From: Escherichia coli
Lineage (GTDB): Bacteria > Pseudomonadota > Gammaproteobacteria > Enterobacterales > Enterobacteriaceae
Length of the DNA: 64,000 bases
Reading direction: 5' to 3' (one strand)
NCBI RefSeq assembly: GCF_965641715.1
Contig: NZ_OZ282453.1
A model generated the notes under the pieces. That model worked only from the letters and a program-made list of their open reading frames with translations. It did not search any database and was not told the DNA's origin. A program made the position numbers and the translations under genes. Positions 2,874-46,940 of this stretch are shown in pieces (the first letter of the stretch is position 1; the number at the start of each line of letters is the position of its first letter).

Positions 2874-3119
2874 CTACGTAATCAACCTGATTTGCCGAAT
2901 CCCGACCATCGGCGATGATAGCCCCCGTAATGCGTGGTCCTTATTTCCGATAAGTTTACTTGAGTCTTTAGCTTCCCATTTCAGCCCACTCTCCCCTGTG
3001 TGGGCTTTTTTCATTGGTCTGACCCGTCCTGAATAGCCAAACAATGGCAATGTTCCACTTTGCAGGGATGATAATAAGGGGATCTGATTCAGAAGAGTTT
3101 TGAAAAGTTGGACCGCCAT
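2874..3119 (-). CDS. yahM: Small uncharacterised protein YahM
   Basis: 81 aa from internal ATG of tool ORF 2874..3149; no recognisable motif; the yahN terminator hairpin lies on its antisense strand. Confidence 0.45.
   Translation of the reverse strand: MAVQLFKTLLNQIPLLSSLQSGTLPLFGYSGRVRPMKKAHTGESGLKWEAKDSSKLIGNKDHALRGLSSPMVGIRQIRLIT
2984..3011 (+). terminator. Intrinsic terminator downstream of yahN
   Basis: perfect 6-bp stem gcccac/gtgggc, 10-nt loop, then TTTTTT; about 125 nt after the yahN stop. Confidence 0.55.
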
Positions 3120-3531
3120 CGAGGCCTCGAACCCCGTACCATACAACAATCCTGGTTGTCGTCTGCTCTTCCTGATGAGCTAATGGCGGTTTTTGATATG
3201 AGCCTTACAGCATATTTTCTGTCAGGCTTGAGTGCGATGCGTAAGGTACAGAAAAGACCCCACACAAACATGATGGAATTATGATTTTTTTCATATGAAT
3301 GTCAACCCACACATTCACAAAACATCTGCATGAGATCATTTTTTATACACCGCATGGCTGCGAAACCACTACTGGTGCTTTTTTAAGCGAAGCGTCGCCG
3401 ATCACAACAAAATATCGGCGAAAAAGGCGGTGGAATGCCATTTGGCATACGGATATACAGATGAAATGATTACCTGCATTGCGATTCACTCTCTGGTGGA
3501 ATAACAACTTGCAGGTGGAACCCTTTCTGAA

Positions 3532-4347
3532 CTAAAGAGTGTAGCGGATTTTAACGTGCTTATTTACAGGATAATATCTGTCACCTAATTCCTGGACTCT
3601 ATTAGATATCCATTCATTTAATCGCGCATCATCTCTGTATGTTTTTACGTCCAGAACAGAGAGCAATAACATCACCAGTGATTCAGGAAAAACAGGGTAG
3701 ATATTTTTTAAGTGTAATAATAATCCATGCGCAAGTGCCTGCTTAATGGGCGCGTCTGTCTCCGGAATAGACGACATTTCGCGAAGCCATTTTTCCACAT
3801 GCATACACTCTTTCCCTTTAGGGAAAATTCTCAGCAAAGGCATATGGTGTTCAAGAAGAATACATTTGCAATCTGTTCGCACTGAATCGATAAACTGCAC
3901 TAATTTCTTAAGCCCGGTAAAGCGTCCAGCCTGCACGTTTGCTTTAATATCAAGAAACGCATCATCCTGGTCATATACCCAAACTGTCCCTTTTTGATTT
4001 TCAAGTATGCGAAAAACAAACTTAACCGGGTGATCAGGGTAATCCATCCAGTCATAAAATCCAGGGAAATCATTAAACTGCACATTTATGGTGAGTGCGT
4101 TATCGTCTGACCACTCACAGTCTCGTACGGCAGCCATGAGATGAATGAGTTTGTCGTCATCGACTAAATCATCACGACAATCATAAGGATAATCATAATA
4201 TTGTTTAATCAAAACCTTGAATATATCGACACAGGAAACCAGGGAGCTTTTGATATCCTCTGGTAACTGATTGTTTTTAACCGTATTAAGTATGCTTTGT
4301 TGCGTATATGGCATCAAATTATTGTGCGGAGCTTTTAATGATATCAT
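3532..4347 (-). CDS. yahL: Uncharacterised protein YahL
   Basis: 271-aa ORF with AT-rich codon usage; no recognised motif; position matches K-12 yahL. Confidence 0.7.
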   Translation of the reverse strand: MISLKAPHNNLMPYTQQSILNTVKNNQLPEDIKSSLVSCVDIFKVLIKQYYDYPYDCRDDLVDDDKLIHLMAAVRDCEWSDDNALTINVQFNDFPGFYDWMDYPDHPVKFVFRILENQKGTVWVYDQDDAFLDIKANVQAGRFTGLKKLVQFIDSVRTDCKCILLEHHMPLLRIFPKGKECMHVEKWLREMSSIPETDAPIKQALAHGLLLHLKNIYPVFPESLVMLLLSVLDVKTYRDDARLNEWISNRVQELGDRYYPVNKHVKIRYTL

Positions 4348-32396: not shown

Positions 32397-33260
32397 ATGG
32401 AGAATGTTATGATCAGGCAGAAGATTTTGCAGCAACTCCTGGAGTGGATTGAGTGCAATCTCGAGCACCCTATCTCAATCGAAGATATCGCACAGAAATC
32501 TGGCTACAGTAGACGCAATATCCAGCTCCTGTTCAGAAACTTCATGCATGTGCCGCTGGGAGAATACATTCGCAAACGAAGACTTTGCCGGGCAGCTATT
32601 CTTGTCCGACTGACAGCGAAATCTATGCTTGATATTGCACTATCTTTGCATTTTGATTCACAGCAGTCATTCAGTCGTGAATTTAAAAAATTATTCGGAT
32701 GCACTCCCCGAGAATACCGGCTCCGTGATTATTGGGATCTGGAAAATATCTTCCCTCCATTTTTAGCACGCCAACATCAAAAAACTGATTGCACATTAAT
32801 CCATTTCCCAGAAACACGTATTTTTGGCAATGCATTTAAATATGATGTTGAAATATCGAATAAATCACCGGATGAAGAAGTTAAACTGCGACGTCATTAT
32901 TTAGCCAGATATATGAAGAATTTTAAGACGGATATCTATTTCGTCTCAACGTTTAAACCATCAACAAAGTCGGTCGATTTACTCACAGTTGAAAGCTTTG
33001 CTGGTACGGTATGTGAACATGCTGACATGCCGAAAGAGTGGACAACGACCCGAGGACTTTATGCCTCTTTCCGTTATGAAGGAAACTGGAAACATTACTC
33101 TGACTGGGTGCGGAACATCTATCTAATAGAGTTGCCTGCAAGAGGGTTAGCCAGAGTGAACGGCAGCGATATTGAGCGCTTTTATTACAATGAAGATTTC
33201 GTAGAAAAGGATTGCAATGATGTTGTTTGCGAAATTTTTATCCCCGTTCGTCCTCTTTAG
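32397..33260 (+). CDS. ykgA: Rob-like AraC-family regulator (N-terminal HTH, C-terminal effector domain)
   Basis: 287 aa; AraC HTH in the first ~110 residues (SFSREFKKLFGCTPREYR); start could instead be ATG at 32409. Confidence 0.75.
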   Translation: MENVMIRQKILQQLLEWIECNLEHPISIEDIAQKSGYSRRNIQLLFRNFMHVPLGEYIRKRRLCRAAILVRLTAKSMLDIALSLHFDSQQSFSREFKKLFGCTPREYRLRDYWDLENIFPPFLARQHQKTDCTLIHFPETRIFGNAFKYDVEISNKSPDEEVKLRRHYLARYMKNFKTDIYFVSTFKPSTKSVDLLTVESFAGTVCEHADMPKEWTTTRGLYASFRYEGNWKHYSDWVRNIYLIELPARGLARVNGSDIERFYYNEDFVEKDCNDVVCEIFIPVRPL

Positions 33261-33288
33261 CCTGTAACTCCATCACATGAGATTTACC

Positions 33289-33364
33289 CTACCCTGCCAC
33301 CGTCTAATCGGTAGCAGGGTAGGTATTCAGTAAATAATGGCGCTGCGCATGTCAACGCCATTAT
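33289..33364. terminator. Two hairpins between convergent ykgA and eaeH (probable bidirectional terminator)
   Basis: stem ctaccctgc/gcagggtag (33289..33322) and perfect 10-bp stem aataatggcg/cgccattatt (33333..33364) with A/T-rich flanks. Confidence 0.5.
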
Positions 33365-33384
33365 TATTTATTACATCGTCGCTT

Positions 33385-36300
33385 TTATTTCTCCTCCGCG
33401 TCTTCAGTCTCTGCAGCAACGGCGTTAATTGTCACCTTCACAGGCGTCATTTCGTACCCGCCATACGTCAGTGCGTTGAATGTGAACGTATAGACACCTG
33501 GCTTGCTGGTACTAAATGTACGCGTGATTTTCCCACCTGAGAAATGGTCAGCCTTCGACGGCAGGAATTGATAATCCTTCTCCGTCACTCCTTCCGGAGC
33601 CTCAATGTCGACCCACATACTTCCTCCTACGGGATTGACTCCCGCCATCAGGGTAACCGTCATTGTTGCAGTAGTCTTCCCGTCCGCCACCAGAGAATCT
33701 ACACGTTCTGGAGATGCGGCGAGCACCGCGTTTTTATCATCCGCGACGAATTTAGATTCAGCAGTTTTCGTCGATACCTGACCGTTGGCCTGTTCCACTT
33801 TCGCCGTGAGTGTATATGTCGCTGCGATAGTGGTAGAGCCGGTGAAAACAGCCTGTCCTTGCTCATTAGTTTTCGCCGTCCCTTTAGGATCCAGAACTAA
33901 ATTTTCCGAGCTGGCAGTCAGCGTCACGTCGCTATCCTTCAACAGGTTGTTATTGGCATCAGTCACCGTAACTTTATACGTTTGTTTGGTTTTGCCATCC
34001 GCCACTGCACGGTTGCCAATCACCTCAATACTGGAGATGGTCGCCGTAGTCTTATCGGCCACAAACGTTACAGACTGCGCATTTGAAGGCTGGTCATTTC
34101 CTGCCGACGCCGTGATCTCATACGTTCCGGCAGTCACGGAGACCACTTTCAGTTCCGCTTTACCCTCCTTGTCGGCGTTCACCATGATATTACCGTCTGC
34201 AAGCGGTTTGACGCCCCGAGGCAGATTAAAGACGACCACAGCGCCAGGCAGAAGGTTGCCGTATTGATCCTTAACCGTTGCCGTCAGCGTAAAGGCATCA
34301 TTGTCGTTTGCCACTTTTGGCGTGCTGCCATCAACCTCCAGGGTCGCCTGACCGGTACTGAAATCCGCCTTGAATTTCACCGTAACCGTCTTCTGAGCAT
34401 TATTCACTGAGGCCGTGATGCTGTGTTCCCCGGCAACCGTTGACATAAGCTCAATGTCCACTTTCCCTGCCGCATTGGTTGTTACTGTATTCCCCGTCTT
34501 GCTGGTCACACCCTGCGGTAAAGTCAGCGTAACTTCTTGCCCCTGCAACGGGTTACCATAGCTGTCCACGACGGTCAGGGTTATCTGGTTAGCAGACTGT
34601 CCATTAGCCAGTTGGTTATTAACCTTCACTGTCATATCACGAATCTCAGCCTTAGATGCGTCACCTGCAACGTTCAGCACCAGTGGCTGAGCAACGGCAT
34701 TTTGGCCGTTCACTCGCGGCATCACAGACAACTGACCCGCGGCAGATCCCAGCGTTAAGGTCGACACGTAGACCCCATTACCTTTCTCTGTCCAGTTTCC
34801 TGCTGAAGGACGCTCACTCCCCGTGCTGGCGGCACCGCTAAACACTGGTGCATCTGGCTTCAGCCCGGTGACCGGGTTCCCGTACGCATCCTTCACGGTG
34901 AAGGTGAGTTCCGTCGTCGTTTTGACGGTCGGAGCCTTATTGTCCGCAACAAGCGTAGAGTTCGCTGATGACATCTCTCCGGCGATGACCGTCAACTGCG
35001 CGGCTTCGGTGGCTGCTGGCTGGCCGTTGAAGAGAGGCATGACGCGAAGCTCGCCCGTCTTTCCACCTGTAGTCAACGTAGCAACATAGGAACCGTTACC
35101 TTTTTCGGTCCAACTGGAAACGGTCGCCCCTTCAGAGGCGGTCCCCGTCAAACTTGCCGACAACGCAAGACCACTGATAGCGTTGCCATGCGCATCTTTC
35201 GCCACCAGCGTCACGGTTGTGCTTTCGCCGGCTTTTACGTGATCTTCTGCGACAGAGACTTTCGACTGGTTTGAAGATAACGCATCAGCCACCACGGTTA
35301 CTTTTGCCGCATTTGCTGCCGCATTCTGTCCATTTAGCTTCGGCATAACTTCTAATTCACCCGCCGTAGAGCCGAGAGTAATCTGCGCAGTCCACGTCCC
35401 ATCACCATTATTTGTCCAGCCCGATGCCGTAGAACCTTCAGCAGCGGCACCCGCTAATGACGGCGCTTCCGGCGTGAGGCTGGTCACAGGGTTGTCATAG
35501 GCATCTTTTACCGTCCAGATTGCCGTAACTGTACCCCCAACCACCGGTTTATCAGGATTCAGGGTGATGGACGAATGTGCTGCATCAAGCGGCCCGGCAA
35601 CAAACTTCAGCGTTTGTTGTAATGTGCCCAGCTGATACTGCTCGCTGAAAGCACGCACAACAACGTTTCCGGCACGGGTCGAAGAAACCGTGGCGCTGTA
35701 AACGCCTGGTTTTATTTCCGAAATGGCACCAACGGTTACACCATTAGTGTCTTGCGGAACAAATCGCAAGCGGCTGGCTTCTCCCGTCACCGGATTACCC
35801 TCGGAGTCCACCGCAGTCAACGTCAACGTATAGGCTTGCTGACCATCAGCAACCACGTCACCTGACGGCTCGTTAGCGCTCAGGGTGGAGTTTGCCACAT
35901 CCATCATCGTGGCCCGCAGTTCTGCAGTGACGGTTTTGCTCATGCCATCAACGCTAACAGTAATCGTTGCCTCACCTGACTGCGTTCCGGTAGTAAAGAC
36001 AGACTGATACACCCCTGCTTCAGTTTCGGTGAACTCACCCAGTGTTGGCTTTGCCTGTGATTTAGTGGCCTTCAGGGAACGAGTCACAATATTTCCAGCC
36101 GGTTTGAAAGTTAGTTCAGTCTTGATCTGATCTTTCATGCCCGTGACTGGCTGGCCCTCGGCGTCGCGCAGAGACAGCACCAGCGGTTTTTGCTCATTAC
36201 CGTTAGCAAGCATTTGAATACGGCTCTGACCGTCAAGCGTTAACGCCGTGCGATCGGCGCTCATACCTGCTCCGGTAATGACCACCTCTGTCTGCACGCG

Positions 36301-37635
36301 TTTTGAGGCATTGTCTTTGTTATCGTAGGCAACCGCAGAAATCGCATAATAATTGTCTTTGCCTGGACGATAAGCCGGGAGCGTTACTTGCCACTGACTA
36401 CCCTGACCGGTAATTTTGCCACCTTCAGCCAGTAATGACGGCGCTTCCCACTGCACATTTTTCAGTCCGTGAGTTGCTTTGCTGACCACAAGCCCCAGGG
36501 AAAGTGTCTGACCGCCCTTGCCTTCAATACGTTCAGGCAGAGCAATACGGATCACTTCAGATTTGCGGTACTCAAGAACGATGTTGTTATTACGCTCAAC
36601 CAGGTCATAGCGGCTGCCTGCCAGCATTCGACGCTCGCGAATGCTGTCTGTATCGAGTTGTTTCTCCAGAGGTTCGCCAATCCGATAATTAACTTCCAGG
36701 CCAAAGCGAGTGTCATTCTCACCACTCTTGCCCTGCTTATGCCCGGCACTCAGGGTCAGAAGAGGTACTGGCGTGTAATTCACTTCAGCGGTAATCGCAT
36801 GTGGATCTTTCTGGCGTTTATCTTTGCCAAACAGCCCGACTTCATCGCCATAATACTGCTCATACATCAGGCTTGCGCCAAGCTGCGGCCAGGCGGGTAA
36901 ATAGCCCTCAGCACGAATATCCCAGCCATTCGCCGGGCGTTCCTGATAATCCTCAACATCCGGCGATTTTTTCCAGCCAGAAGCCCGAATATAACCATTG
37001 GCGCTCAGTTTCAGATAATCGCGCCAGTATTCCGCACCAACACCAATGCGGGTATGACTACGGGATAAATCATGGTCGATAAAGGTGTTCACCCCCGCCA
37101 TCCAGTCATTTCCTGAAAAATGACGCCAGCCAAAACCAATATTTGACTGAGTACGATCGTCTGTACGATGTATTGCTCCCTGAGTGAACAACATATTTGT
37201 TGGCGTATCATAAATCGGATAAAGCATTTCCAGCGAAGAATCCTTCAGCGAGAAATCTTTATCGACATTCAGTTTGACGCGCGCAGTACCGTATTTCCCG
37301 AGCCACTCCTGTATTTCCTGGTTAGCTTTAGCGGTGGCCATTCCGGTAATAAAATTACGTGTCGCATCGCTATCTGGCTGACTGCTTAAAAATGTCCCGG
37401 CATTTGCGGCAAACGACGCGACATTTTTCTCCACGTTATTATCAGCAGTTACCGTAGTATTTCCCATGCTCAACCGTGGCTGAACAGCATGCTGCGCACG
37501 TGCCGCCATTACTGGGGTAAAAGTGACTGCGAGTGGAAAAAGAACCTGAACAGAGATATTTGCCCACGCCACGCAGCGGGCCAGAACTGAATAACGAAAT
37601 CGTGGTTGTTTATGACCTGTTTTATAACGTGACAT
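33385..37635 (-). CDS. eaeH: Intimin/invasin-family inverse-autotransporter adhesin (FdeC/EaeH), full length
   Basis: 1416-aa ORF; N-terminal signal and beta-barrel region, then many ~100-aa bacterial Ig-like repeats. Confidence 0.88.
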   Translation of the reverse strand: MSRYKTGHKQPRFRYSVLARCVAWANISVQVLFPLAVTFTPVMAARAQHAVQPRLSMGNTTVTADNNVEKNVASFAANAGTFLSSQPDSDATRNFITGMATAKANQEIQEWLGKYGTARVKLNVDKDFSLKDSSLEMLYPIYDTPTNMLFTQGAIHRTDDRTQSNIGFGWRHFSGNDWMAGVNTFIDHDLSRSHTRIGVGAEYWRDYLKLSANGYIRASGWKKSPDVEDYQERPANGWDIRAEGYLPAWPQLGASLMYEQYYGDEVGLFGKDKRQKDPHAITAEVNYTPVPLLTLSAGHKQGKSGENDTRFGLEVNYRIGEPLEKQLDTDSIRERRMLAGSRYDLVERNNNIVLEYRKSEVIRIALPERIEGKGGQTLSLGLVVSKATHGLKNVQWEAPSLLAEGGKITGQGSQWQVTLPAYRPGKDNYYAISAVAYDNKDNASKRVQTEVVITGAGMSADRTALTLDGQSRIQMLANGNEQKPLVLSLRDAEGQPVTGMKDQIKTELTFKPAGNIVTRSLKATKSQAKPTLGEFTETEAGVYQSVFTTGTQSGEATITVSVDGMSKTVTAELRATMMDVANSTLSANEPSGDVVADGQQAYTLTLTAVDSEGNPVTGEASRLRFVPQDTNGVTVGAISEIKPGVYSATVSSTRAGNVVVRAFSEQYQLGTLQQTLKFVAGPLDAAHSSITLNPDKPVVGGTVTAIWTVKDAYDNPVTSLTPEAPSLAGAAAEGSTASGWTNNGDGTWTAQITLGSTAGELEVMPKLNGQNAAANAAKVTVVADALSSNQSKVSVAEDHVKAGESTTVTLVAKDAHGNAISGLALSASLTGTASEGATVSSWTEKGNGSYVATLTTGGKTGELRVMPLFNGQPAATEAAQLTVIAGEMSSANSTLVADNKAPTVKTTTELTFTVKDAYGNPVTGLKPDAPVFSGAASTGSERPSAGNWTEKGNGVYVSTLTLGSAAGQLSVMPRVNGQNAVAQPLVLNVAGDASKAEIRDMTVKVNNQLANGQSANQITLTVVDSYGNPLQGQEVTLTLPQGVTSKTGNTVTTNAAGKVDIELMSTVAGEHSITASVNNAQKTVTVKFKADFSTGQATLEVDGSTPKVANDNDAFTLTATVKDQYGNLLPGAVVVFNLPRGVKPLADGNIMVNADKEGKAELKVVSVTAGTYEITASAGNDQPSNAQSVTFVADKTTATISSIEVIGNRAVADGKTKQTYKVTVTDANNNLLKDSDVTLTASSENLVLDPKGTAKTNEQGQAVFTGSTTIAATYTLTAKVEQANGQVSTKTAESKFVADDKNAVLAASPERVDSLVADGKTTATMTVTLMAGVNPVGGSMWVDIEAPEGVTEKDYQFLPSKADHFSGGKITRTFSTSKPGVYTFTFNALTYGGYEMTPVKVTINAVAAETEDAEEK

Positions 37636-38185
37636 TGAGATAATTTCCTGATGAACGAATTAACGAACATAGGCAGACACAAATAATGGCGTCTGCTTGT
37701 CAGAAAAACCGGGGATTTCCCGATTTCCTTTTCCGCAGAAAAGGAAATACCTTTATGTAAGAAAGTGCACCGCCACCTAATATATCCAGTGTCTGTAGCC
37801 ACTCATCAGGTGGTTGGGCGCGGGATTATATTTTTATTTATGGGTGAAAATTTAGCTTTTTGTGCAAGTCATTAAATAGATACCTAAGTTATATTTTTTA
37901 CTCTGCGGACAGTGAATAATTCATTATTCAGAGTGAATAATAATGGCCTGCCTTTAATTAACAACTATTGGAAATACGTCGAAGTAGGTATATACGCCAG
38001 GATAAACCGATATATTTTTTATGGATATTCATTTTCCTTTATCGGACTGTAAATTGCGGGGATATCGAACTTGTACTACTCATCTCAACACTCAAACAGA
38101 TTTATGAATTTCGTTCATAACCCCTGACAAATCCTGCCGTCTAATCGAGCTCTTCTCTTTACGTTATGCTTCTCATGAACGATAA

Positions 38186-41052
<2,867 letters not shown>

Positions 41053-41192
41053 CTATTATTTTAGCCACATTATTAGTAACAATGATAATCTGGCTGTATC
41101 GAAAATAATTCTAAACTTTCAGGAGATTTATTATGAATAAACGTATCCTCACGATTGTGCCATTCTTCTTACCGATATTCTGACACATATCA

Positions 41193-42119
41193 TCAATTTT
41201 CGAGTTTTACTCTTTTCTCCACCATAAAATCAATAAAAGCACGAACTTTAGAGGGCATTCTCACCCGTGATGAAACATAAATATAAAATCCAGGAAATGA
41301 AACAGCCCAATCCTCAAGAATCGGCTGTAACTTGCCCGCATTGATATGTTCAGCGATTGCAAAATCCAGATGTTGAATGATACCCGTTCCATTCAGCGCC
41401 ATTCGTATCATGCTTTCGTCATCATTAGAAATATACTTACCTGAAACCTCTATTTCGAACTCTTCATTACCCCCCACAACATTAGAAAACTCCCATGCAG
41501 AGAGTGCACCGCTACTTTTATGCCGCAACCGAAGGCAATTATGGTTACTCAGTTCCTGAGGCGTTTCAGGAATACCGTGTTCTTTTAAATAATCTGGCGA
41601 TGCCACAGTAACCAGTTTAATAAGCGGAGAAACAGGAACGGCAGTCATATGCTCATCCAGTCCTTGCTCAAGACGTATGCCCACATCACAGCCGTCCGCA
41701 ATAATGTTAGATAAACCGTCATCCATAATGAGTTCTATCTTTGTTTTGGGGTAACGAGTAAGAAACTCGCCAATATGAGGCTCAACAAGCATCCGTGCTG
41801 CAACACGGGAGGAATTTATTCTCAACAGGCCTGTAGGTTCAAGTTGGGTATCACCAACATCTTTCAAAGCATCATCAATTTGCCCCAAAGCCGACACCAG
41901 CACTTCATACAGACGCTGTCCTTCCTCAGTAAGCGACATATTGCGGGTCGTACGGTATATCAGCTTGGTGTTAAGACGTTCCTCAAGAGATTTTAAATTC
42001 TGGGACAATGCGGCCCGCGTAATACCCATTTCAGAAGCGGCTCTGGAAAAACTGCCGGCACGAACAATCAGCGCAAACCAGGCAAGAGAAGGCAAAATTG
42101 AAGGCTCTATTTTCATCAT
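41193..42119 (-). CDS. LysR-family transcriptional regulator
   Basis: HTH FSRAASEMGITRAALSQNLKSLEERL; start assigned to MMKIEP (tool ORF extends to 42182); divergent from the hydrolase gene. Confidence 0.75.
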   Translation of the reverse strand: MMKIEPSILPSLAWFALIVRAGSFSRAASEMGITRAALSQNLKSLEERLNTKLIYRTTRNMSLTEEGQRLYEVLVSALGQIDDALKDVGDTQLEPTGLLRINSSRVAARMLVEPHIGEFLTRYPKTKIELIMDDGLSNIIADGCDVGIRLEQGLDEHMTAVPVSPLIKLVTVASPDYLKEHGIPETPQELSNHNCLRLRHKSSGALSAWEFSNVVGGNEEFEIEVSGKYISNDDESMIRMALNGTGIIQHLDFAIAEHINAGKLQPILEDWAVSFPGFYIYVSSRVRMPSKVRAFIDFMVEKRVKLEN

Positions 42120-42275
42120 TGTAAACCTTAACTTAACACTGTGATAGATATTAGACCATTGATGATAACCAATACAAGTCATACTATTACGCCGTTCTCG
42201 ATATGAACACGAATGCCAGTTGCGGATAATAGAAATGATATTTAAATCTGTTTAGGCAAATCCCCGGAGCTTGAA

Positions 42276-43196
42276 ATGAAAACTGTTTCGATAAAACACA
42301 CTTACTGGGATATAGCTGCTGATATCTATTTCCCTGACGATTTTAATAGTGAAAAAAAGTATCCTGCCATTATCAGCGCCCATCCAATTGGAAGCTGCAA
42401 AGAACAGACATCGGGTAGTGTGTATGGTGCCGCCCTGGCAAAAGCTGGCTTTATCGTCATTGCTTTTGATGCCAGTTTTCAGGGTAGCAGCGGTGGGGAA
42501 CCGCGTTATCAGGAAGATCCAACAATGCGAGTAAAAGACTTCAGCATTGTCGTTGATTACCTTACCAGCTTACCTTACGTTGATGCCGGGCGTATTGGTG
42601 TACTGGGTATTTGTGGTGGAGGTGGATATGCCATTAATGCCGCAATGACAGAACGTCGAATTAAAGCTATTGGTACTGTCACGGGTGCAAACTACGGGCG
42701 TCTTATGCGTGAGGGATTTACAGCGTTTAATCCTATCGGAGCACTCGAAGCAATAGCGCAACAAAGAACAGACGAAGCTAACGGCGCAAAACTTCGCGTA
42801 GATGATTTACTCCCCTCTTCTCCGGATGCAGCTCTTGAAGCGGGATTAACAGAAATAGACCTTTTTGAAGCCACAGAATATTATCGTTCGCCACGAGGCT
42901 GTGCACCTAATGGGGTAAATCGTTCGCTATTCTCACATCAGACTGTTGCCGTGGGTTGGGATGCATTTCATCTTGCAGAAGTGCTGTTAACTCAACCAAT
43001 AATGGTTGTGGTGGGCGATAGAGTGGGCGCATTTGGTGCCTACCGTGACGGCTGCGAAATTATTGGCCGCGCTGCTTCAAAACATAAAGAGCTGGTCGTG
43101 GTTGAAGGTTATTCACATTACGACCTGTATGATAAGCCAGAACCTGTGAAACAGGCACTCGATAAATTAATTCCTTTTTATAAAACACATTTGTAA
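42276..43196 (+). CDS. Alpha/beta-fold hydrolase with Cys nucleophile (dienelactone-hydrolase-like)
   Basis: 306 aa; nucleophile-elbow motif GICGGGG; C-terminal GYSHYDLYD (His region); no signal peptide. Confidence 0.75.
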   Translation: MKTVSIKHTYWDIAADIYFPDDFNSEKKYPAIISAHPIGSCKEQTSGSVYGAALAKAGFIVIAFDASFQGSSGGEPRYQEDPTMRVKDFSIVVDYLTSLPYVDAGRIGVLGICGGGGYAINAAMTERRIKAIGTVTGANYGRLMREGFTAFNPIGALEAIAQQRTDEANGAKLRVDDLLPSSPDAALEAGLTEIDLFEATEYYRSPRGCAPNGVNRSLFSHQTVAVGWDAFHLAEVLLTQPIMVVVGDRVGAFGAYRDGCEIIGRAASKHKELVVVEGYSHYDLYDKPEPVKQALDKLIPFYKTHL

Positions 43197-43440
43197 TAAT
43201 TTTACAGGGAGATTTCTTATCTCCCTTATATTTATCCTTTACTGACTACACAACAATAATAAAATTACTCAAAAAGAAATTTCATTAAAGAAACAAAAAA
43301 GCAGCAACTCAATTATTAAGATTATTAGAAACCCTTTGAAGGGATTATAAATAAAGCCAGAAATCTTGGTTCCAAAGCTGGCAACAACTAACCAGTTAAA
43401 ACATACGCATCAAAATCAGATAAACATTTGAGGTATTGTT

Positions 43441-44583
43441 ATGACAAATAAACACCCATCATTGTTTTCTCCTTTTATGCTGACAGAAAAAATAAAGCTA
43501 CGTAATCGTATCGTTATGGCTCCTATGACGACCTGGTCAGCGAATCCTGATGGAACCATCTCTGAGCAAGAACTCGAATTTTATAAACGCCGCTCACAAA
43601 ATGTTGGTTTAGTAATAACAGGATGTACCTATGTCACGCCAAGCGGCATTGGGTTTACTCATGAATTTGCCGCGTATGACGACCGTTTCATTAACAGCCT
43701 TGAAAAGTTAGCAGCGGCAGCCAAAAGTGGGGGTGCTCCGGCTATTTTGCAGATTTTCCACGCCGGTAATAAAGCCATCCCGGAGCTTGTACCAAATAAC
43801 GATGTTATTAGTGCCAGCGCATCAAGCGTAAAATCTGGTGACTTTATGAAGAGAGTGGTACAAAGCAGGGAAATGACTGAAAACGAAATTCAGGAAACCA
43901 TTAGAGCATTCGGAGATGTCACAAAAAGGGCGATTAAAGCAGGTTTTGATGGCATTGAACTTCATGGTGCGCACGGATTCCTTCTACAGAATTTCTTCTC
44001 CCCTCTATTTAACCAGCGTAATGACCGATGGGGAGGAGATCTCGAAGGACGTATGCGCTTCCCGCTGGCCGTATTACAGGAAGTAAAAAATGTAGTCTAT
44101 GAATATGCGACAAAGCCCTTTGCCATCGGTTACAGAATATCTCCTGAAGAATCTGCAACAGGGGGGCTGCGGATAGAGGATACTTATAAACTCCTTGATC
44201 GGCTCATTTCATCCGGTATTTCGTATATACATACCTCGCTGGTCAGTATTAACGAAAGCTACCCTGTTGAGTCGCCAAATGGCCCCCGAACTATTGAATT
44301 GATTTTAAATCATATTGCAGGCAGAGTGCCGGTAATCGCTGCAGGTAAAATACGCACACCGTCTCAGGCTCAAGAAGCAATTTCCACTGGCCTGCCACTT
44401 GTTGCGATCGGTAAAGGGCTGGTGATAAATCCAGAATGGGTGACTTTAGCTGAATCAGGTAGAGGCCATGAAATTCAAACAACCCTTAATCCACAACTTG
44501 TTCCTGAATTAACCATTCCGGATAAACTATGGGATCAAATTCAGGCATCGAAAGGAACTGGCTGGTTTCCGTTAATGGATTAA
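43441..44583 (+). CDS. NADH:flavin oxidoreductase (Old Yellow Enzyme family)
   Basis: 380 aa; OYE motifs HGAHGFLLQNFFSP and DRWGG. Confidence 0.8.
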   Translation: MTNKHPSLFSPFMLTEKIKLRNRIVMAPMTTWSANPDGTISEQELEFYKRRSQNVGLVITGCTYVTPSGIGFTHEFAAYDDRFINSLEKLAAAAKSGGAPAILQIFHAGNKAIPELVPNNDVISASASSVKSGDFMKRVVQSREMTENEIQETIRAFGDVTKRAIKAGFDGIELHGAHGFLLQNFFSPLFNQRNDRWGGDLEGRMRFPLAVLQEVKNVVYEYATKPFAIGYRISPEESATGGLRIEDTYKLLDRLISSGISYIHTSLVSINESYPVESPNGPRTIELILNHIAGRVPVIAAGKIRTPSQAQEAISTGLPLVAIGKGLVINPEWVTLAESGRGHEIQTTLNPQLVPELTIPDKLWDQIQASKGTGWFPLMD

Positions 44584-45976: not shown

Positions 45977-46013
45977 TTAATGTTGGTGTATTTATTACAC
46001 CAGCATTAATTTT
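45977..46013 (+). terminator. Intrinsic terminator after ykgO
   Basis: 14-bp stem ttaatgttggtgta/tacaccagcattaa (one G-U pair), 5-nt loop, then TTTT. Confidence 0.6.
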
Positions 46014-46940
46014 CCTGGGGATGTATCTTCCTGTTCATTTAAGGTCAACTGCCTGACGTTTCTCTCCGAATATTCCATTATATTAATGTTGACTTGTTGA
46101 CCAGCTTCGCCCCTGTATGCTGGCATCAACCCTCTTTTAGACTGAACACGCCACTCAGTTTCCTCCCTTTGCGACGCAGCCTGCATTTACACTCAAACTG
46201 TTAAGATGATAAATGTGGTAAATCTGTTGGTACTGACATAAAAACGTTTACGCCACAGGAACGGCCTGATCCACCGGTAACCCCGTCGCCGACGTTCGAG
46301 TGCCAGTTAGAGTAACGCGCACAGATGACTGAATGCAGTGCCCTGGCAAAGAGGCCATCGTTCCGGTGACAACTGGCAGTCTTCGTTTAACTTCACTTAA
46401 TCTGGCTCTTAGGGGGCTTACCGGACAGATGACGTACTTACACCTGTTTAATTTTTCATCACTTATTGGGATGAACACCCATAACCATTTTGTGCGGCAT
46501 GTTAACCCATTAAAACACCTTACTGATTGGCAAATCATCTTTAATTATGACTCATGATAGTTTTATATTCTATTTCTTATCATTTAGACTTGTTTTTTTA
46601 CTAGTCCATTACACAACACATTAAGACTATTCCTAACATCTCAGGGCAAAGTTCCTGGCTAATATAAAATGCAAGTAAGAATTGAACGTTATATTGCCAA
46701 TAACCTTATGAAACTGAATGTCTTTTTCTTCTTATCAAAAAAGCAATATTTTCATTTTTTGTAAATATTGACTTAACCATGGAATTCATTTTCTGTTCAC
46801 ATATTGACACTCATCAGGAAAAAAACATAAATTTAAACCTAATCGAAATAATTAAAACTTAATCTCGTTTAACCTATATTGATATGTGCTACGTATCTTA
46901 TTTACTTCCGATTTACTAAAGAAACTGAATGTACCTGTAA

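Follow-up and report, generated by a model that had tools for sequence, protein, structure and literature searches.

The fdeC locus

Our analysis covered a window of 64,000 nucleotides of Escherichia coli DNA, in which a long gene on the minus strand lies between an AraC-type regulator and an aldo/keto reductase (AKR) gene:

32397..33260, plus strand: convergent neighbour, AraC-type HTH regulator (ykgA homologue), from synteny and Pfam
33385..37635, minus strand: fdeC (eaeH) coding sequence, intact, from the open reading frame (ORF) list, its translation and megablast annotation
37636..38200, no strand assigned: divergent intergenic or regulatory region between fdeC and the aldo/keto reductase gene, from composition and comparison
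38201..39052, plus strand: divergent neighbour, aldo/keto reductase, from synteny

According to the ORF list, the gene is one frame of 1416 codons plus a stop, opening with ATG, and its 1416-aa translation contains no internal stops, so that the single uninterrupted 4.25-kb ORF described in the first-pass annotation is borne out. Its start codon is the one used by RefSeq fdeC annotations in other strains. In thousands of genomes, megablast matches bear the annotation "fdeC: inverse autotransporter adhesin FdeC", and the NCBI entry identical to the protein carries the name "inverse autotransporter adhesin FdeC [Escherichia coli]". The identification as FdeC/EaeH, also made in the first-pass annotation, further holds at the level of alignment: the protein aligns with UTI89 FdeC over 1416 aa at 94.8% identity and with no gaps, and with FdeC of strain D7 at 99.1% identity. 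Moreover, the crystallised FdeC fragment (PDB 4e9l) aligned to aa 595–1008 (phmmer E 4e-248, 414 residues), with about 17 differences counted by eye on the printed alignment (about 96%).

The order of genes around fdeC, rclABC – AKR – AraC regulator – fdeC – AKR island – ykgR/ykgMO – ecp, is syntenic with the annotated fdeC loci of strains D7, PS10-3, 2824 and UTI89. The gene thus occupies the canonical fdeC locus, which extends from the ykgA-type AraC regulator and rcl to ykgR-ykgMO-ecp. Pfam HTH_18/HTH_AraC domains were found on the AraC-type neighbour in loci with identical FdeC; we regard this gene as genomic context and at most as a candidate regulator. The aldo/keto reductase gene is the first of a six-gene island (to 44583) which is present or absent among strains, and strains without the island retain a 90-nt remnant.

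Nothing that we found contradicts the identification, and the ORF is almost certainly the intact chromosomal fdeC (eaeH) of Escherichia coli, encoding a type Ve (inverse autotransporter) adhesin whose function we infer from its orthologues. That the long ORF might instead be an assembly or reading artefact, or conceal a defect such as a wrong start codon so that no full-length product is made, is highly improbable. Beyond the general caution that one window cannot prove expression, we found no support for it; many independent public assemblies contain the identical 1416-aa protein (30 contigs and 54 collection blocks), different lineages share the start codon and upstream region, and the match to the barrel profile runs from one end to the other.

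Among 5426 complete E. coli genomes, fdeC was matched by megablast in 5082, with a coverage of 80% or more in 4585 (about 85%); published shares of strains with intact fdeC are 67–83%. Full-length fdeC is therefore usual in E. coli, and strains with a broken gene, K-12 being one, are a minority. An intact copy is neither a distinguishing mark of the strain nor a pathotype marker; intact fdeC was already known, and there is nothing new in finding one.

Domain architecture and relation to intimin and invasin

The first-pass annotation had described an intimin/invasin-family protein with a long array of Ig-like repeats, and the domain annotation that it proposed recovered both the barrel and the Ig-like domains:

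37495..37635, minus strand: probable extended Sec signal peptide, aa 1–47, sequence read by eye
36586..37410, minus strand: inverse-autotransporter beta-barrel domain, aa 76–350, from Pfam PF11924 IAT_beta and the structures 4e1t and 4e1s
36247..36564, minus strand: first extracellular Ig-like domain (D00-like), aa 358–463, from the 6tqd_A match, between the barrel and the first repeat
33394..36246, minus strand: nine tandem Ig-like (Big_1/Invasin_D3) domains, aa 464–1414, followed by a short acidic tail, from a self-built HMM and Pfam
34612..35853, minus strand: stretch equivalent to the crystallised FdeC fragment 4e9l, from phmmer

Residues 1–47 comprise a basic N-region, a hydrophobic core and, as read by eye, A-R-A (aa 45–47) followed by Q48, features which suggest an extended Sec signal peptide. 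This N-terminus differs at 0–4 of the first 100 aligned positions from the D7, PS10-3, UTI89 and OkiPb proteins. The beta-barrel, on which the first-pass annotation had made its identification depend, is present: Pfam PF11924 IAT_beta matches aa 76–350 with E 2.4e-110 and 368.9 bits (cut-off 22.3), covering profile positions 3–279 of 279, and solved barrels align to aa 113–357 (invasin 4e1t, E 9e-84; intimin 4e1s, E 4.5e-72). The domain is a complete IAT barrel of the 12-strand type.

Behind the barrel, the intimin chain 6tqd_A matches aa 358–474 (E 1.2e-10), and an iterated self-built HMM resolved nine consecutive Ig-like repeats of about 100 aa at aa 464–1414, each with E 1e-25 to 1e-33; Pfam assigned nine stretches to Invasin_D3 and four to Big_1. 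The D00-like domain and the nine repeats together make ten Ig-like domains, which confirms the long array. The barrel is thus N-terminal (aa 76–350) and the Ig-like passenger C-terminal (aa 358–1414), the inverted order of this family, and the last 108 aa of the protein are the ninth repeat. Pfam gave no match to a LysM domain or to a lectin-like C-terminal tip, and the only cysteine, C21, lies within the signal-peptide-like segment, leaving the mature protein cysteine-free.

Like FdeC, intimin (Eae) and Yersinia invasin use type Ve secretion and combine a homologous barrel with an Ig-like passenger, whereas FdeC lacks LysM, the C-type-lectin-like receptor-binding tip and cysteines in the mature protein, and has more Ig domains. 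The shared barrel and Ig-domain fold, structures that match parts of the protein and significant E-values from the NCBIfam intimin and Inv models could be taken to mean that the gene encodes intimin or a Yersinia-type invasin which binds Tir or integrins through a lectin-like tip. However, the intimin_all model reached only 385 bits against a curated cut-off of 1400 and Ve_Inv_Crono_N 316 bits against 710, and invasin 1cwv matched just one or two generic Ig domains (E 1e-14). In addition, LysM is absent, the last domain is an Ig repeat, the mature protein has no cysteine and therefore cannot form a disulfide-bonded lectin domain, and the locus is that of fdeC and not the LEE. We consequently rejected this identity, which has virtually no chance of being correct. 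YeeJ and IatA-D belong to the same family as FdeC and are encoded at other loci (PMC5595812, PMC6714894). The YeeJ barrel has been reported to be 59% identical to that of FdeC (PMC5595812, PMC6714894), but YeeJ carries a LysM domain and a lectin tip, and the NCBIfam IatC model scored 642 bits on our FdeC against a cut-off of 2400.

Allele variation and the broken gene of K-12

The FdeC studied in ExPEC (ECOK1_0290 of IHE3034, UTI89 allele class, CFT073; PMC3324786, PDB 4e9l) shares with our protein the length of 1416 aa (UTI89), the locus and the organization of a barrel with ten Ig-like domains. The two differ allelically, with the differences from UTI89 FdeC concentrated in aa 700–800 and 1000–1400, so that the C-terminal domains deviate from the studied ExPEC allele. 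The allele in the window is a recombinational mosaic of several lineages, and because of this mosaic structure the best megablast identity of the gene is only 98.2–98.8%. This low value had raised the suspicion of Shigella or an unusual lineage, which we dropped in view of the mosaic and of the many E. coli assemblies with the exact protein. FdeC/EaeH of EHEC O157:H7 and ETEC is an orthologue at the same locus which differs only by allele-level sequence variation (Easton et al. 2014; PMC7864753).

The first-pass annotation described eaeH of K-12 as a short fragment at IS3, and this is correct: in the BW25113 genome, fdeC is an 876-nt N-terminal fragment directly abutting IS3, and the K-12 gene is also described as a pseudogene by Nesta et al. 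2012 (PMC3324786). The K-12 copy retains the same start codon, an upstream region about 96.6% identical to ours and a first 876 nt that are 96.9% identical. In contrast to the gene in the window, only this N-terminal part is left, since IS3 cuts eaeH and also truncates the neighbouring AraC-type gene, and K-12 lacks the six-gene reductase/LysR island upstream of fdeC. FdeC is already familiar as an adhesin conserved widely in E. coli and as a vaccine candidate; the intact copy means that the strain, unlike K-12, keeps the gene as most natural isolates do, and adds little beyond annotation.

Expression and function

By analogy with orthologues that are 92–99% identical, FdeC would be exported by Sec, and BAM, assisted by TAM, would insert its barrel into the outer membrane. 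For FdeC of CFT073, such insertion via BAM and TAM, surface exposure of the passenger and ten Big domains have been reported (Heinz et al. 2016, PMC4943183). The C-terminal passenger would then be threaded out through the barrel and fold domain by domain into a rod; from the 126 Å that three domains span in the crystal, ten domains may reach roughly 40 nm. As published for its orthologues, this rod might bind collagens I, III, V and VI as well as epithelial cells, and could promote biofilm formation when expressed.

The first-pass annotation had deduced functional adhesin capacity from the intact copy. The intactness stands, while the capacity goes beyond it: intactness is no proof of expression, because published work finds fdeC silent in vitro, and adhesion phenotypes are strain-dependent or even opposite. 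FdeC is undetectable in standard culture and is induced on host contact (PMC3324786) or expressed at 39–42 °C (PMC11143625; PMC5854682). The gene might thus be intact but cryptic, being silenced by H-NS nearly always and acting mainly on motility, biofilm or envelope physiology instead of host adhesion. This is a possibility to which we give clearly less than even weight. It is in line with the detection of FdeC only on host contact or from about 39 °C upwards, with the AT-rich upstream region, and with deletion phenotypes: an fdeC deletion in APEC IMT5155 raised both adhesion and motility (PMC11143625), and an eaeH deletion in EDL933 left HEp-2 adherence unaffected (PMC7864753). On the other hand, the eaeH deletion in strain SS17 abolished HEp-2 adherence (PMC7864753), recombinant FdeC attaches to collagens and cells, and mice are protected by immunisation (PMC3324786). 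Moreover, long as it is (4.25 kb), the ORF has stayed intact in about 85% of complete genomes, which argues for selection on the protein.

Composition of the upstream region and H-NS

The intergenic region at 37636–38200 measures exactly 565 bp and has a GC content of 37.5%, lower than that of the window (50.0%) or the fdeC ORF (52.2%); among all 565-bp windows it ranks at the 4.5th percentile. The earlier description of this region as strongly AT-rich fits its core at 37836–38035 (about 29–31% GC), whereas the region as a whole is only moderately so. AT content peaks in another part of the window, at about 46000–46900. Of the 5426 E. coli genomes, 5047 contain the upstream region, and its sequence can be aligned between lineages, K-12 among them.

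Silencing by H-NS, which the first-pass annotation had suggested from the composition, is an already published idea for fdeC: control by H-NS and temperature is attributed to Easton et al. 2014 (AEM 80:7337), as cited in PMC6714894, PMC11143625 and PMC5854682. In our strain, H-NS bound to the AT-rich upstream region would by analogy normally silence fdeC transcription, and this silencing may be lifted by temperatures of about 39 °C and higher, by alkaline pH or by contact with host cells. The upstream region of an O157:H7 genome is 97.9% identical to ours, and the published regulation by H-NS and temperature can be expected to apply.

A conserved segment just upstream of fdeC

The last approximately 235 bp before the fdeC start, three hairpins included, are conserved across Escherichia lineages, and the following elements were delineated:

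37821..37868, minus strand: candidate promoter segment, an invariant 20-mer and a perfect TATAAT, from sequence conservation
37673..37748, minus strand: three conserved sense-strand hairpins ahead of the start codon, from fold z-score and conservation
37723-37748, minus strand: hairpin 1, an 11-bp perfect palindrome, from fold and conservation
37710-37722, minus strand: hairpin 2, a short GC hairpin followed by GTTTTTCTG (37701-37709), a U-run, from fold and conservation
37673-37696, minus strand: hairpin 3, from fold and conservation

The 20-mer CTTGCACAAAAAGCTAAATT at 37849-37868 and the TATAAT at 37825-37830 are both unchanged in six Escherichia sequences, among them that of the divergent E69 lineage; no E69-type upstream sequence was found among the 5426 E. 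coli genomes, and one scan of a genome collection retrieved none of the fdeC loci of E. albertii, E. fergusonii, E. marmotae and E. ruysiae. A generic scan for sigma-70 promoters and terminators gave no enrichment over shuffled sequences (3 versus 5.5 and 6 versus 5.6) and did not select this pair. By eye, we also noted a sigma-32-like CTTGCAC-N15-CACCCAT and dropped it, its -10-like part being unconserved in E. whittamii and E69.

The predicted fold of this segment lies well below that of shuffled controls (z-score -4.08), and the hairpins are kept in E. whittamii, Escherichia sp. E1V33 and E69, with just one compensatory change, G-C to A-U in hairpin 3. An Rfam search of 33000–38600 at E<=1 returned just a chance miRNA match (21.8 bits; gathering score 90), and the upstream region contains no convincing small ORFs. 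We considered an RNA thermometer in a transcribed leader and found no support for it: in partition-function calculations, the probability that the Shine-Dalgarno sequence is unpaired stays flat at about 0.14 from 25 to 42 °C, and 17% of the upstream-shuffled controls occlude it equally well or better. RNAalifold pairs the U-run after hairpin 2 with the Shine-Dalgarno region.

It is conceivable, though we consider it rather unlikely, that 37636-37868 forms an undescribed cis-regulatory module, perhaps an operator, perhaps a 5′ leader that is structured or resembles an attenuator, which may add to induction by temperature and host contact alongside H-NS. Its conservation from E. coli to E. whittamii and E69 and its fold relative to shuffled controls speak for such a module, the single compensatory change and the outcome for the RNA thermometer against it. 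If true, this conserved, structured region might account in part for the activation of FdeC expression by high temperature or host contact, and it is the sole lead with some research value at this locus.

The fdeC gene and its product

The ORF listing of the window places fdeC (eaeH) at 33385..37635 on the minus strand, with an ATG start, 1416 codons and no internal stops in its translation, in agreement with the coordinates and length of the uninterrupted ORF in the first-pass annotation. This ORF is a textbook gene, here in the intact form that is usual for it. The search against Pfam revealed a complete inverse-autotransporter (IAT) beta-barrel at aa 76-350 (PF11924, E 2.4e-110, profile positions 3-279 of 279) and a passenger in which Invasin_D3 matches nine stretches and Big_1 four; no LysM domain was detected. 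Among solved-structure sequences, the barrels of invasin (4e1t) and intimin (4e1s) match aa 113-357, the intimin D00-D0 structure 6tqd matches aa 358-474, and the crystallised FdeC fragment 4e9l matches aa 595-1008 (E 4e-248), where about 17 of 414 residues differ by manual count. An HMM iterated on FdeC itself identified nine contiguous Ig-like repeats of about 100 residues at aa 464-1414, which together with the D00-like domain give ten Ig-like domains, as many as Heinz et al. 2016 (PMC4943183) count in FdeC. These results bear out the earlier description of an intimin/invasin-family adhesin with an Ig-repeat array. Since the C-terminal domain is a further Ig repeat and the sole cysteine, C21, lies within the putative signal-peptide region, the protein lacks a disulfide-bonded lectin-like tip of the intimin/invasin kind. 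The NCBIfam models for intimin, invasin, IatC, Ilp, SinH and YchO all match the barrel but score far under their curated cut-offs, and we therefore rejected these named relatives as identities for the window protein.

Occurrence and mosaic structure of the allele

Megablast found a match to fdeC in 5082 of 5426 complete E. coli genomes, with at least 80% of the gene covered in 4585; the full-length ones among the matches listed are annotated as "fdeC: inverse autotransporter adhesin FdeC". The locus is canonical, running from rclABC, an aldo/keto reductase and an AraC-type regulator (the ykgA homologue, convergent with fdeC) through fdeC to ykgR-ykgMO and the ecp operon. At the protein level, identity to FdeC of the comparison strains is 99.1% (D7), 98.2% (PS10-3), 94.8% (UTI89, of equal length and aligned with 0 gaps) and 91.7% (OkiPb01696), which together with the 4e9l match confirms the FdeC assignment. 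NCBI already lists the exact 1416-aa protein under the name "inverse autotransporter adhesin FdeC [Escherichia coli]", and the cluster to which it belongs at 90% identity has 17,949 members. Many independent assemblies encode an identical FdeC. In contrast, K-12 BW25113 and one K-12-like strain retain only the first 876 nt of the gene, directly followed by an IS3 that has cut short the AraC-type gene as well. The account of Nesta et al. 2012 (PMC3324786) agrees with this state of the K-12 gene, which the first-pass annotation had correctly described as a short fragment abutting IS3.

A 200-nt sliding comparison with other strains revealed that the allele (33261-38200) is a mosaic. Strain 2824 is almost identical over the upstream region and the initial ~3 kb of fdeC but differs by ~18% at gene nt ~3036-4236, where D7 and PS10-3 are the near-identical strains instead. 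The closing bin, which starts at gene nt ~4236 and takes in the 124-bp 3′ flank, matches UTI89 with 5 differences versus 65-92 for the others. Apparent breakpoints lie near window positions 34600 and 33400. The C-terminal tail (...ETEDAEEK) is likewise close to that of UTI89 (...DTEGAEEK), whereas D7 ends in ...ETENGEEEMP. Because of this mosaicism, the best whole-gene DNA identity among complete genomes is at most 98.8%. The pattern reflects ordinary recombination between surface-protein alleles, and the mosaic allele itself is common in public data.

Between fdeC and ykgR, a six-gene block (38201-44583) encodes two aldo/keto reductases, two LysR regulators, an alpha/beta hydrolase and an NADH-dependent flavin oxidoreductase. 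The window, UTI89, 2824 and PS10-3 carry this block, whereas K-12, D7 and OkiPb01696 lack it and retain just a 90-nt gene remnant ~550 bp upstream of fdeC; the homology break lies ~15 nt from the reductase start.

Proposed function and expression

The architecture of FdeC was tested on the window sequence, and what follows on its mechanism is drawn from studies of orthologues. FdeC would be exported by Sec, its N-terminal barrel inserted by BAM with TAM assisting, and its C-terminal passenger extruded; this scheme follows work on CFT073 FdeC (PMC4943183). The passenger would form an extended rod of Ig domains. With 126 Å for three FdeC domains in the crystal (PMC3324786), we extrapolate roughly 40 nm for ten.

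Recombinant FdeC bound collagens I, III, V and VI as well as epithelial cells, and the protein was not detected in ordinary culture but appeared upon host-cell contact (PMC3324786). In EHEC and APEC, its expression requires about 39-42 °C (PMC11143625, PMC5854682). Mutant phenotypes are strain-dependent: deletion of fdeC raised adhesion and motility in APEC IMT5155 (PMC11143625), left HEp-2 adherence unaffected in EDL933 and abolished it in SS17 (PMC7864753). An intact gene is thus necessary but far from sufficient for the "functional adhesin capacity" proposed in the first-pass annotation. Overall, the underlying observation is confirmed and its interpretation supported.

The upstream region and a conserved pre-start module

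From the fdeC start codon to the divergent aldo/keto reductase (start 38201), the intergenic region measures exactly 565 bp. Its GC content is 37.5%, whereas the whole window has 50.0% and the ORF 52.2%. Among all windows of 565 bp it ranks at the 4.5th percentile, and GC falls to ~30% in a core of 200 bp (37836-38035). The AT-richness noted earlier is therefore real; that of the core is consistent with H-NS-type silencing, though no proof of it. H-NS dependence of fdeC is the topic of Easton et al. 2014 (AEM 80:7337), as cited in PMC6714894, PMC11143625 and PMC5854682. The most AT-rich stretch of the window lies elsewhere, at ~46000-46900 (565-bp windows down to 29.7% GC), and by synteny with annotated genomes appears to surround ykgL, upstream of ecpR and the ecp pilus operon.

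The whole ~550 bp upstream can be aligned among lineages including K-12, and the region occurs in 5047 of 5426 E. coli genomes. Scanning one genome per species with a degenerate pattern yielded three more Escherichia loci, from E. whittamii, Escherichia sp. E1V33 and the divergent "E. coli" E69. The upstream homology of E69 is limited to the ~235 nt nearest the ATG, and these ~235 bp are conserved from E. coli through E. whittamii to the E69 lineage. They include three sense-strand hairpins (hp1-hp3) between a perfect TATAAT and the start codon:

Features of the conserved pre-start module (window coordinates)
37849-37868, minus strand: invariant 20-mer, start of the shared block
37825-37830, minus strand: perfect TATAAT, in the shared block
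37723-37748, minus (sense) strand: hp1, perfect 11-bp palindrome, invariant
37710-37722, minus (sense) strand: hp2, GC hairpin, then the U-run GTTTTTCTG
37673-37696, minus (sense) strand: hp3, one compensatory G-C to A-U change in E69

The predicted RNA fold of the segment lies ~4 SD below shuffled sequences (z-score -4.1), and it matches no Rfam family. RNAalifold predicts pairing between the U-run and the Shine-Dalgarno region, which led us to consider a fourU-like RNA thermometer. The test did not support this candidate, since the predicted Shine-Dalgarno occlusion is constant from 25 to 42 °C and equalled by 17% of shuffled controls; the literature searched contained no paper linking an RNA thermometer with FdeC or EaeH. 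The block may work at the RNA level, as a structured leader or an attenuator, or as an operator in the DNA. The only possible novelty here is that it represents an undescribed cis-regulatory element, which seems unlikely to us.

Further homologues

The E69 homologue (L010, CP089930.1) is 90% identical to window FdeC over its first 530 aa, where the locus ends. An E69-type upstream region occurs in 0 of 5426 complete E. coli genomes, and E69 is probably a separate Escherichia lineage. The barrel motif WDIRAEGYLP was also found six times in one Bartonella choladocola genome (BBC0122; L019-L024) and in uncultured Bartonella MAGs (L009, L011). In tblastn, the Bartonella loci share 33-59% identity with FdeC over up to ~1300 residues, which suggests that B. 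choladocola BBC0122 encodes FdeC-like inverse autotransporters as a multi-copy family.
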